Shown here: positions 73-1,565 of the stretch, piece by piece
Numbering within the stretch: position 1 is the stretch's first letter
Layout of the letters: each line of letters begins with the position of its first letter
Source: Candidatus Lloydbacteria bacterium RIFCSPHIGHO2_02_FULL_50_18
GTDB taxonomy: Bacteria > Patescibacteriota > Minisyncoccia > Phycocordibacterales > UBA6899
Length of the DNA: 29,245 bases
Assembly (NCBI GenBank): GCA_001821395.1
Contig: MHLM01000007.1
Coordinates: 1 to 29,245, forward strand
Reading direction: 5' to 3'
Notes under the pieces: model-generated
What the model saw: the letters and a program-made list of their open reading frames with translations, nothing else
What the model was told of the DNA's origin: nothing
Database searches by the model: none
Translations under genes and position numbers: made by a program

Positions 73-309
73 TCACTCAAACCGAATGATGTTGACTGGG
101 CAGGTATCCGACGCTTCTTTGTTTGCTGCACAGTCTCCTTCGTCAATTGCTACGGACACTACGCCGTTCTTATGCAATACACCACCTTCGAGATCAGATT
201 TGCCGTCGTTGTCATTCATTTTCCAATTTTTCGGTGCAAGCAATACGCAGGATCCGCATCCGATACACTTCTCCCGTTGATGATGAATGGTGATTTTCTT
301 TACTCCCAT
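73..309 (-). CDS. small single-cluster [4Fe-4S] ferredoxin
   Basis: 78-aa ORF. Cysteine pattern C-I-G-C-G-S-C plus a distal C-P, typical of bacterial 4Fe-4S ferredoxins. Its start lies 5 nt after the stop of the upstream U32 gene on the same strand, suggesting co-translation. Confidence 0.7.
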   Translation of the reverse strand: MGVKKITIHHQREKCIGCGSCVLLAPKNWKMNDNDGKSDLEGGVLHKNGVVSVAIDEGDCAANKEASDTCPVNIIRFE

Positions 310-314
310 ATGCG

Positions 315-1565
315 CTACTTTTTATCTCTCCAAAGATACACTTCGTCGTTCGGGCGGACGCGCCTTGAAACCGGAATAGTGATAGCGTCTCCTTTCTTCG
401 CACTCGTGACAGAATGTTGATTCACGTCACGCATTTCAGTGACAGTCGCTCCATATACTCCGGTGGTTTGTCCGATGATTTTGATTTCGTCTCCAATGTG
501 CACTGCTTCTGCGTGGAGAAGTATTTCTGCAACACCCGCCTTCGCGAAATAATTTTTTACCACACCAAGTGCGACACGCTCTTTTGTTGCCTGCGAACCT
601 TTTGTGTTGCTGTATGCATCGAGCTCTTTTCCAAGATAGTAGTTGCCGTGCGATTGACCGCGGTTGTATACCGTTTTGAGCTCATCGAAATACGTTTCAA
701 TCTTTTCCTTCGTGTAGGTACCGTTTGCAACATCCTTAAGCGCTTGCTTGTATGCGTGTGTCACGATTTCAACATACTCGGGTGCGCGGCCGCGGCCTTC
801 GATCTTGAAGACCTGCACGCCCGCTGCGAGGAGCTCGGGGATCTTGTCGATCATGCAGATGTCTGCTGCGCTCATCACGAACTGGTTGTCGACAATGAGC
901 TCTTGCCCTGTTTCCACATCAGTCACCTTGTACGCGCGACGGCAATTTTGACGGCATGCTCCACGATTTGCAGACGAGTTGTCGGTATAGATACTCATGA
1001 AGCATCTGCCGGACTGGGCGACACAGAGCGCTCCGTGCACGAAGGCTTCGATCTCCATCATTCTCCCTTCGTTCCCCAAAAGCTTCTCTTCACGAATCTT
1101 TGTTGCAATGGCTTTGATCTGATCGAGGGTGAGTTCGCGCGCGAGCACGACGCGGTTGGTGAGTTTCGCAAAGAATTTCAGGGATTCATAGTTTGAGACG
1201 GAAAACTGCACCGAGACATGCACGGGCATTCCTATCTCGTTGCAATATGCTAGGGTTGCAAAATCAAAACCAATAATCGCGTCGACACCATTTGCCTTTG
1301 CGGCGTCAACAATCTTCTTCATGAGTACGGTGTCATGGTCGTACAAAAGCGTGTTCACGACGAGATACGCTTTGATCTTCGCAGTATGACAAATGTCCGC
1401 GACTGTCTTGATGTCGTCGAGGGTCATGTTGTCTGCAGCGCGAGAACGCATATTGAGTTGCGTGACGCCAAAATAGATACTGTCGCATCCTGCTTCTATA
1501 GCAGCCTGTAGACTTTCCATACTCCCGGCGGGAGCCATTATTTCCGCATTGTGAGGTGAGATCAT
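315..1565 (-). CDS. peptidase U32 family protein (Fe-S enzyme, RlhA/TrhP/YhbU-like)
   Basis: N-terminus ...[24 protein letters not shown] aligns with the U32 family N-terminus (E. coli YhbU MELLCPAGN...AAIENGADAVY). It carries a C-x6-C-x15-C-x3-C motif (CVAQSGRC...C..RQNC) and an EGRGR motif. The ORF-track start at 1628 is a GTG, and the ATG at 1565 (MISPH...) fits the family better. The start is uncertain. Confidence 0.8.
   Translation of the reverse strand: [416 protein letters not shown]

Follow-up and report, generated by a model that had tools for sequence, protein, structure and literature searches.

Introduction

U32 proteins with an iron-sulfur (Fe-S) cluster form an emerging class of O2-independent hydroxylases, which act in the formation of 5-hydroxyuridine (ho5U) in tRNA, of 5-hydroxycytidine (ho5C) in rRNA and in anaerobic ubiquinone synthesis. 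In Escherichia coli, TrhP and the O2-dependent hydroxylase TrhO provide two redundant routes to ho5U at position 34 of tRNA (ho5U34; PMC6599085). As of 2024, in vitro reconstitution had not been achieved for any U32 hydroxylase, and neither what the cluster does nor which external redox partner it has was known (PMC10990095, PMC11574389). Here we describe a U32 gene and the ferredoxin gene that follows it in a stretch of 29,245 nucleotides from Candidatus Lloydbacteria bacterium RIFCSPHIGHO2_02_FULL_50_18 (contig MHLM01000007.1 of assembly GCA_001821395.1, positions 1 to 29,245; hereafter the window), a groundwater bacterium with a tiny genome that belongs to the Candidate Phyla Radiation (CPR; Patescibacteria). 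The U32 gene (315..1565, minus strand) encodes a protein of 416 aa with TrhP/TrhP1-like architecture, and the ferredoxin gene (73..309, minus strand) one of 78 aa. The pair recurs across CPR classes and is in some lineages fused into a single polypeptide. Based on such comparisons, the ferredoxin is very probably a dedicated partner of the U32 enzyme.

Conservation of the U32-ferredoxin pair

An earlier interpretation of this locus, made without database searches (hereafter the sequence-only reading), had called for a synteny survey of U32-ferredoxin pairs. We performed this survey with one genome per GTDB species and flanks of +-4 kb. It yielded 57 loci of the window U32 clade (57-80% identity), all of them from CPR genomes, and two distant U32 genes. 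In six of the 57 loci the sequence stops at the U32 3' end, which left 51 testable ones, and in 45 of these a ferredoxin ortholog lies directly downstream on the same strand. The pair was found in Paceibacteria, Moranbacteria, Saccharimonadia, Gracilibacteria, Peribacteria, Falkowbacteria, Kaiserbacteria and Campbellbacteria, and it persists across classes though the surrounding genes differ. Saccharimonadia carry it at L044-L046, and locus L033 lies on the complete genome CP175956.1. Furthermore, the more similar a U32 protein is to that of the window, the more similar its ferredoxin tends to be as well, a co-variation (r=0.79, n=45) that indicates co-inheritance.

Two loci of the survey encode both proteins in a single open reading frame (ORF), joined by a linker of about 50 residues: L041 from Gracilibacteria (3986-5581) and L043 from UBA5272 (4001-5545). 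A protein search with a fusion query returned at least eight clusters of such proteins (P0316-P0323), which are 501-531 aa long and comprise both Pfam domains. One of them, P0321, occurs on seven contigs with differing neighbours. AlphaFold2 (AF2) modelling of one fusion gave a folded ferredoxin domain held on a disordered linker of about 25 residues. The possibility, raised earlier, that the ferredoxin ORF is not translated was checked as well, and the conserved synteny, the co-variation and the natural fusions all speak against it and show the two genes to be functionally coupled. A joint alignment of fusions, U32 proteins and free ferredoxins was dropped, as the ferredoxins were misaligned onto the Cys region of U32. 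The homolog search with the 78-aa ferredoxin itself retrieved 31 proteins, a number that, owing to a word-index limit, is a weak guide to the wider distribution.

The ferredoxin matches the Pfam families Fer4_15 (8.7e-10, 39.6 bits against a cutoff of 22.4) and Fer4_13 (2.7e-9, 38.0 bits against a cutoff of 24.5) and displays the ligand set CIGCGSC...CP. Among 46 orthologs only C15, C18, C21 and C70, the latter followed by P71, are invariant, and C60, an extra Cys of the window protein, is not conserved. The ferredoxin should thus hold one [4Fe-4S] cluster. In the window, the stop codon of the U32 gene (TAG, 315-317) and the ferredoxin start codon (ATG, 307-309) are separated by the spacer CGCAT (310..314, minus strand), a gap of exactly 5 nt. 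Both the 4Fe-4S ferredoxin and its distance to the U32 stop had been reported by the sequence-only reading and were recovered from the sequence and the Pfam matches. Its notion of tight coupling held only in part: the short gap is real in the window, but across CPR genomes the spacing is not conserved, with a median of 44 nt and 10 nt or less in 17 of 42 cases. Because tight spacing is not kept, the conserved feature is co-transcription rather than translational coupling. For the window genes, co-transcription is likely and translational coupling possible; no Shine-Dalgarno-like sequence was found 5-15 nt from the ferredoxin ATG. The gene beyond the ferredoxin encodes an HTH_38 protein and is convergent, and the unit therefore consists of two genes.

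Domains, cysteines and fold of the U32 protein

Residues 82-310 of the window U32 protein match positions 4-228 of the 233-position Peptidase_U32 profile (PF01136; E=2.9e-65, 220 bits against a cutoff of 22.4). As start codon, the ATG at 1565 was favoured over an upstream GTG in an alignment of homologs, because these share the same 15-residue N-terminal consensus. The exact C-x6-C-x15-C-x3-C motif noted before was verified at residues 181-208 (C181, C188, C204 and C208; 942..1025, minus strand), where the four Cys are the predicted ligands of a [4Fe-4S] cluster. The motif was found in 120 of 120 close homologs, and all four Cys are invariant among 26 CPR sequences. In these sequences E173, C181 and C188 are invariant as well and align with E162, C170 and C177 of TrhP and, by BLASTP, with E161, C169 and C176 of RlhA, which are the residues reported as essential in both enzymes (PMC6599085). 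UbiU and UbiV bind [4Fe-4S] via homologous Cys (PMC6747719), and about 4 Fe were found bound to TrhP of E. coli (bioRxiv 10.1101/2021.04.01.438105). The window protein can be regarded as an Fe-S U32 protein that presumably binds its cluster in the same manner. This agrees with the former view of a Cys-cluster, hydroxylase-type U32 protein instead of a Cys-less peptidase.

The motif as such is less informative than previously assumed. Four-Cys clusters are conserved in eight of ten U32 families, with CX6CX15CX3/4C as a recurrent spacing (PMC6747719; PMC5727448), and only PepU32#5 and PepU32#6 are without conserved Cys of this kind (PMC5727448). Consequently, the motif cannot place the protein among the subfamilies. 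The sequence-only reading had treated it as a marker of RlhA, TrhP and UbiU/UbiV; it does assign the protein to the Fe-S class of U32 proteins, but it does not discriminate among these enzymes, and the spacings of UbiU and UbiV differ. The same reading would have given up its proposal if the protein had grouped with collagenase-type peptidases lacking the Cys. This is a false dichotomy, as the 'collagenases' PrtC (family #4) and HP0169 (family #2) belong to Cys-bearing families (PMC5727448).

Downstream of the catalytic domain, a Peptidase_U32_C-like beta-barrel is encoded at 345..569 (minus strand). The respective profile (PF16325) scores 21.2 bits and remains under its cutoff of 28.2. However, the AF2 model of the protein (predicted local distance difference test, pLDDT, 78.6) comprises a TIM-barrel followed by a C-terminal beta-barrel with pLDDT >90 in the barrel region, and in Foldseek this barrel superposes on 4he5/4he6, the solved C-terminal domain of a U32 protein from Geobacillus (TM-scores, normalised to the target, of 0.82-0.92). 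The modelled catalytic barrel matches 5d88, the sole solved U32 domain. A PDB sequence search, including matches up to E<=10, revealed no relative of the U32 catalytic domain.

Links to tRNA modification

From the sequence and gene-context evidence below, an RNA-hydroxylase role of the U32 protein appears likely. We further lean, with somewhat less confidence, toward the view that the pair hydroxylates the wobble uridine U34 of tRNA to ho5U in a TrhP-like manner, with the ferredoxin as redox partner. One line of support comes from relatives outside the CPR. When 50%-identity representatives were searched, the whole CPR clade collapsed, and the next relatives proved to be 40-47% identical over their full length. 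One of these, P0122/P0271 (670/749 aa), is 47% identical to the window U32 protein over 414 residues, which makes it the nearest relative with named domains beyond the CPR clade, and its U32 part runs on into UPF0176_N, Rhodanese and Rhodanese_C domains. This C-terminal part passes the NCBIfam equivalog of TrhO, the oxygen-dependent tRNA U34 hydroxylase (242.6 bits against 170), and contains the CTGGIR motif in its Rhodanese domain. The U32-TrhO fusion was detected on four contigs (e.g., L068:8001-10250, also L069 and L070), where its neighbours are archaeal: the proteasome, the exosome genes Rrp4/41/42, SBDS and Taw1. Given that TrhO is fused to a close U32 relative, a Rosetta-stone link to U34 hydroxylation is suggested. 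The archaeal protein joins both known ho5U34 routes in one polypeptide. Other fusions exist in the sister group at 41-45% identity, namely U32+NUDIX with 585 aa and HD+U32 with 575 aa (P0124, P0139). The NUDIX and HD domains of these proteins act on nucleotides or phosphoesters.

A second line of support is gene order. About 10-11 Moranbacteria loci (within the set L006, L009, L012-L018, L021, L052, L059; e.g., L018:626-7708) show the order U32-fd-dusB-mnmA-mutY on one strand, and an Fe-S assembly operon, rrf2-sufC-sufB-sufD-sufS, lies divergently upstream of the pair. This gene order links the pair to tRNA modification and Fe-S supply. The argument brought forward in the sequence-only reading was a different one, namely the head-to-head position of tsaD in the window. 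The position itself is correct, but none of the 57 other CPR-clade loci has a tsaD gene in the 4 kb on either side of U32, and its adjacency therefore carries no weight as evidence. An RNA-modification role thus stands as the best-supported function through the TrhO fusion and dusB-mnmA, joined by the domain architecture and the best profile matches as a third line, and the tsaD argument falls.

Electron flow and oxygen donor

In the scheme we propose, the U32 TIM-barrel and the cluster at its four Cys would carry out the two-electron oxidation and hydroxylation of the base, and the C-terminal beta-barrel might aid RNA binding. The ferredoxin would connect the U32 cluster to cellular redox carriers as a shuttle for two electrons, which most probably leave the enzyme. 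The hydroxyl oxygen might stem from prephenate, the donor in E. coli, or from a different source. A role of the ferredoxin as acceptor is tentative, since typical low-potential ferredoxins are poor oxidants. What has been published is the following: the hydroxylations that depend on TrhP, RlhA and UbiUV require prephenate, and in ubiquinone synthesis it is prephenate that donates the oxygen (PMC10990095). It was proposed that the substrate ring undergoes a two-electron oxidation and that prephenate decarboxylates, delivering hydroxide, with the Fe-S clusters handing the substrate's electrons on to an acceptor not yet identified (PMC10990095). In such a scheme, a co-encoded ferredoxin would be an acceptor or a relay and not a donor. 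The earlier designation of the ferredoxin as 'electron donor' was consequently an assumption, and the sole published mechanistic proposal runs electrons away from the substrate (PMC10990095).

Subfamily placement and alternative explanations

The subfamily was approached by several methods. The best NCBIfam match of the window U32 protein is TrhP (NF011996), with 183.3 bits in two stretches. A hidden Markov model (HMM) of the CPR clade scored highest, 202 bits over the full length, against a TrhP1-like protein of a Bacilli metagenome-assembled genome (MAG). The gene of this protein is of the yrrN/yrrO type: it stands in tandem with a Cys-less U32 gene near greA, like yrrN-yrrO. The same HMM gave 152 bits with E. 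coli RlhA, covering the U32 domain only, 147 bits with E. coli TrhP, the C-terminal domain included, and 131 bits with UbiU. Sakai et al. (2019, Supplementary Data 1) assign U32 proteins of Moranbacteria (8), Falkowbacteria (3), Peregrinibacteria (2) and Magasanikbacteria (1) to the subfamily 'TrhP'. CPR taxa labelled in this way also carry the window clade, an overlap that holds at the level of taxa.

Several points weigh against a TrhP-like enzyme acting on U34. The TrhP equivalog cutoff of 534 bits is clearly missed. BLASTP against the E. coli paralogs, taken from MG1655, gave only 27% identity and 115 bits with TrhP, the alignment being broken by a TrhP insertion of about 60 residues that the window protein does not have, and it put the U32 core slightly nearer to RlhA (33% over 279 aa, 140 bits); UbiU reached 29% and 124 bits. 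In a neighbor-joining (NJ) tree of the CPR clade, E. coli TrhP, RlhA, UbiU and UbiV and the TrhP1/2-like pair of Bacilli, the CPR clade obtained 100% support and a sister group that includes the archaeal U32-TrhO fusion 67%, but CPR and E. coli TrhP did not group together. The deep nodes of this tree have bootstrap values <65%, and it was not used for subfamily assignment. Neither trmR nor cmoA nor cmoB was found near the U32 gene, be it in the window or within +-4 kb of the 57 loci. The linkage to dusB-mnmA occurs in one class alone and may thus represent few independent events. In six of the 51 testable genomes no ferredoxin was found in the available flanks of U32. Finally, CPR bacteria are not generally known to have the shikimate pathway, the source of prephenate; a literature search on shikimate and chorismate in CPR yielded nothing helpful in the titles and abstracts it returned.

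Some of these points would suit the same enzyme and ferredoxin acting on another RNA pyrimidine, either C2501 of the 23S rRNA, giving ho5C as with RlhA, or a different rRNA or tRNA position. Besides the BLASTP values, the CPR HMM scores RlhA slightly above TrhP, the deep branching of the NJ tree is weakly supported, and the high conservation within CPR, where homologs are 57-87% identical to the window protein, would fit a universally conserved macromolecular target. However, DUF3656, a domain unique to the RlhA subfamily (PMC5727448), gave no match in the window U32 protein at E<=0.01. RlhA aligns on the U32 domain only, whereas TrhP and the TrhP1-like protein align through the C-terminal domain, and the TrhO fusion and the dusB-mnmA neighbourhood indicate tRNA. 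We therefore judge a non-U34 pyrimidine to be an unlikely target, albeit one worth keeping in mind. A small molecule as substrate, such as the quinone precursor of UbiU/UbiV or another metabolite, is improbable. UbiU is the second NCBIfam match, most U32 subfamilies are uncharacterised (PMC10990095), and the NUDIX and HD domains fused to near relatives act on nucleotides or small molecules. Yet the scores are far under the cutoffs (UbiU 162.4 against 440, UbiV 55.4 against 275), and no UbiT-like gene was conspicuous in the census of neighbours. No CPR locus contains a second U32 gene within +-4 kb, which argues against a UbiU/UbiV-type as well as against a TrhP1/TrhP2-type pair. In addition, quinone synthesis is not known from CPR bacteria, and neighbourhood and fusions favour tRNA.

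If the substrate is left aside, the ferredoxin might be a housekeeping electron carrier or a helper of Fe-S biogenesis that is merely adjacent to U32. Small ferredoxins are often promiscuous, roughly 11 Moranbacteria loci have the pair divergent beside rrf2-sufCBDS, and the six genomes with U32 but without adjacent ferredoxin point in the same direction. Nevertheless, such a role is hardly to be expected in view of the covalent U32-ferredoxin fusions, the adjacency kept across classes amid a changing neighbourhood and the co-varying identities of both proteins. Still less probable, to a degree that we consider it nearly negligible, is a genuine collagenase-type peptidase. The names in NCBI and UniRef, 'collagenase' or 'putative protease', suggest it: the window U32 protein is 100% identical to an NCBI 'collagenase' of Candidatus Lloydbacteria RIFCSPHIGHO2_01_FULL_49_22 (contig MHLI01000020.1), and PrtC and HP0169 were reported to be collagenolytic (PMC5727448). 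The name is, however, inherited from the family. Against a peptidase stand the invariance of the Fe-S ligands and the obligatory linkage or fusion of the ferredoxin, and no signal-peptide-like stretch was noticed at the N-terminus when the translation was inspected by eye. Every Cys-cluster U32 protein that has been characterised genetically is a hydroxylation factor (PMC6747719, PMC6599085, PMC10990095). One might finally speculate that CPR bacteria and related DPANN archaea, which are not generally known to have the shikimate pathway, use the module as a self-contained, prephenate-free anaerobic RNA hydroxylase that takes its oxygen from water or another donor, with the tethered ferredoxin as the long-sought electron acceptor in U32 chemistry. 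We consider this rather unlikely, but if it were true, the U32-ferredoxin fusions would be minimal complete systems and a first practical route to reconstituting a U32 hydroxylase of any kind in vitro.

Locus layout and further observations

The U32 gene is divergent from tsaD (1794..2969, plus strand) across an intergenic region of 228 bp (1566..1793), which presumably holds the promoters of both genes. A consensus scan detected no sigma-70-like site in this region, the consensus being uninformative for this phylum, and a promoter and terminator scan of the locus gave nothing informative. TsaD, responsible for N6-threonylcarbamoyladenosine at position 37 of tRNA (t6A37), passes the NCBIfam TsaD equivalog with 359.7 bits against a cutoff of 296.1; we treat it as a neighbour outside the module. 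The protein has 391 aa and matched the profiles in two stretches, with an insertion of about 50 residues near positions 60-110 compared to canonical TsaD. A GC-rich hairpin with a T-run is located at about 2972-3000, between tsaD and a convergent gene (3021-7649, minus strand). The latter encodes a predicted surface protein of 1542 aa with a VWA domain and repeated bacterial Ig-like modules, as well as recurring Cys/Asp-rich 'C.DG.DNDGD...DF' segments and a C-terminal hydrophobic anchor.

Further downstream, the window contains a bacterial RNase P RNA of class A (22202-22551, minus strand; 119 bits against a cutoff of 100). Since it overlaps the 5' end of the ORF at 19482-22295, which encodes a TPR protein, the true start of this ORF must be sought further downstream. 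Three tRNA genes were found, all on the minus strand: tRNA-Phe(GAA) at 12073-12146, tRNA-Arg(CCT) at 12660-12734 and tRNA-Gly(CCC) at 14313-14386. The presence of C34 isoacceptors implies that the tRNA set of the organism is not minimal.

Two observations concern the genomes of the survey. The U32 genes of L042, L051 and L058 contain in-frame TGA codons at conserved glycines (e.g., PA*S for PAGS), and genetic code 25 (TGA = Gly) is therefore in use in these genomes. Records titled Bdellovibrionales, Micavibrio, Cryomorphaceae and Gammaproteobacteria look like mislabelled CPR MAGs.

Significance

That U32 proteins form a family, that they have an Fe-S nature, that they reportedly depend on a ferredoxin (Lauhon, 2019) and that CPR members appear in a published subfamily table (Sakai et al., 2019) was known before. 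Our search of the literature on U32 in Patescibacteria returned nothing, and we found no description of a near-universal CPR U32-ferredoxin operon with a single-cluster ferredoxin, of the covalent fusions or of the archaeal U32-TrhO fusion. In this clade the ferredoxin is almost always co-encoded and sometimes fused, which identifies the partner genetically and provides compact constructs for biochemistry. The fusions should be useful reagents, because U32 hydroxylases still awaited reconstitution in 2024 and lacked a known redox partner. In addition, the findings suggest that the ultra-small CPR genomes keep a pathway of wobble-uridine hydroxylation, and they raise the question of the source of the oxygen donor. 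The annotations 'collagenase' for the U32 gene and 'hypothetical protein' for the ferredoxin gene can be corrected accordingly.

Comparison with known systems

E. coli TrhP (YegQ) resembles the window enzyme in its layout, as both consist of a single subunit with a U32 TIM-barrel followed by a U32_C beta-barrel and share the CX6CX15CX3C motif as well as the essential Glu and Cys. The insertion of about 60 residues that the window protein does not have follows the Cys cluster in TrhP. E. coli TrhP is also reported to depend on a small ferredoxin, YfhL (Lauhon, 2019). However, the two systems differ in the ferredoxin and in its genetic arrangement: the CPR ferredoxin shares an operon with the enzyme or is fused to it, whereas in E. 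coli more than 500 kb separate yfhL from trhP, and YfhL is a dicluster protein unrelated to the single-cluster Fer4_15/Fer4_13 ferredoxin of the window. The YfhL-type family has the motifs CX2CX2CX3CP and CX2CX9CX3CP and two clusters (PMC8144621). BLASTP of the window ferredoxin against E. coli YfhL gave an 8-residue match only (E=0.076). The analogy to YfhL that the sequence-only reading had drawn thus finds no detectable sequence similarity to build on, and the window ferredoxin has one conserved cluster motif only.

Of similar size and domain composition is the YrrO-type subunit of TrhP1/TrhP2 (YrrO/YrrN) from Bacillus subtilis, with about 400-420 aa, U32 and U32_C as in the window protein and about 29% identity to it. 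While TrhP1/TrhP2 employs a Cys-less second U32 subunit, the CPR enzyme has a ferredoxin gene instead and no adjacent trmR. RlhA (YdcP), the factor for ho5C2501 in 23S rRNA, possesses the same Cys motif with no insertion after it and a U32 core that is 33% identical, but it continues into DUF3656 and comprises 653 aa, whereas the window protein ends in the U32_C barrel and has 416 aa. UbiU and UbiV, the O2-independent ubiquinone hydroxylases, are U32 Fe-S proteins as well (PMC6747719). Unlike the window protein, these two U32 paralogs assemble into a heterodimer that works with UbiT, and they lack a C-terminal barrel. Their Cys spacings are CX6CX16CX38C and CXnCX12CX3C instead of CX6CX15CX3C (PMC6747719). 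Finally, the archaeal U32-TrhO fusion P0271 shares the Cys motif with the window protein and is 47% identical to it end to end, and it bears a C-terminal TrhO module where the window enzyme has its ferredoxin partner.

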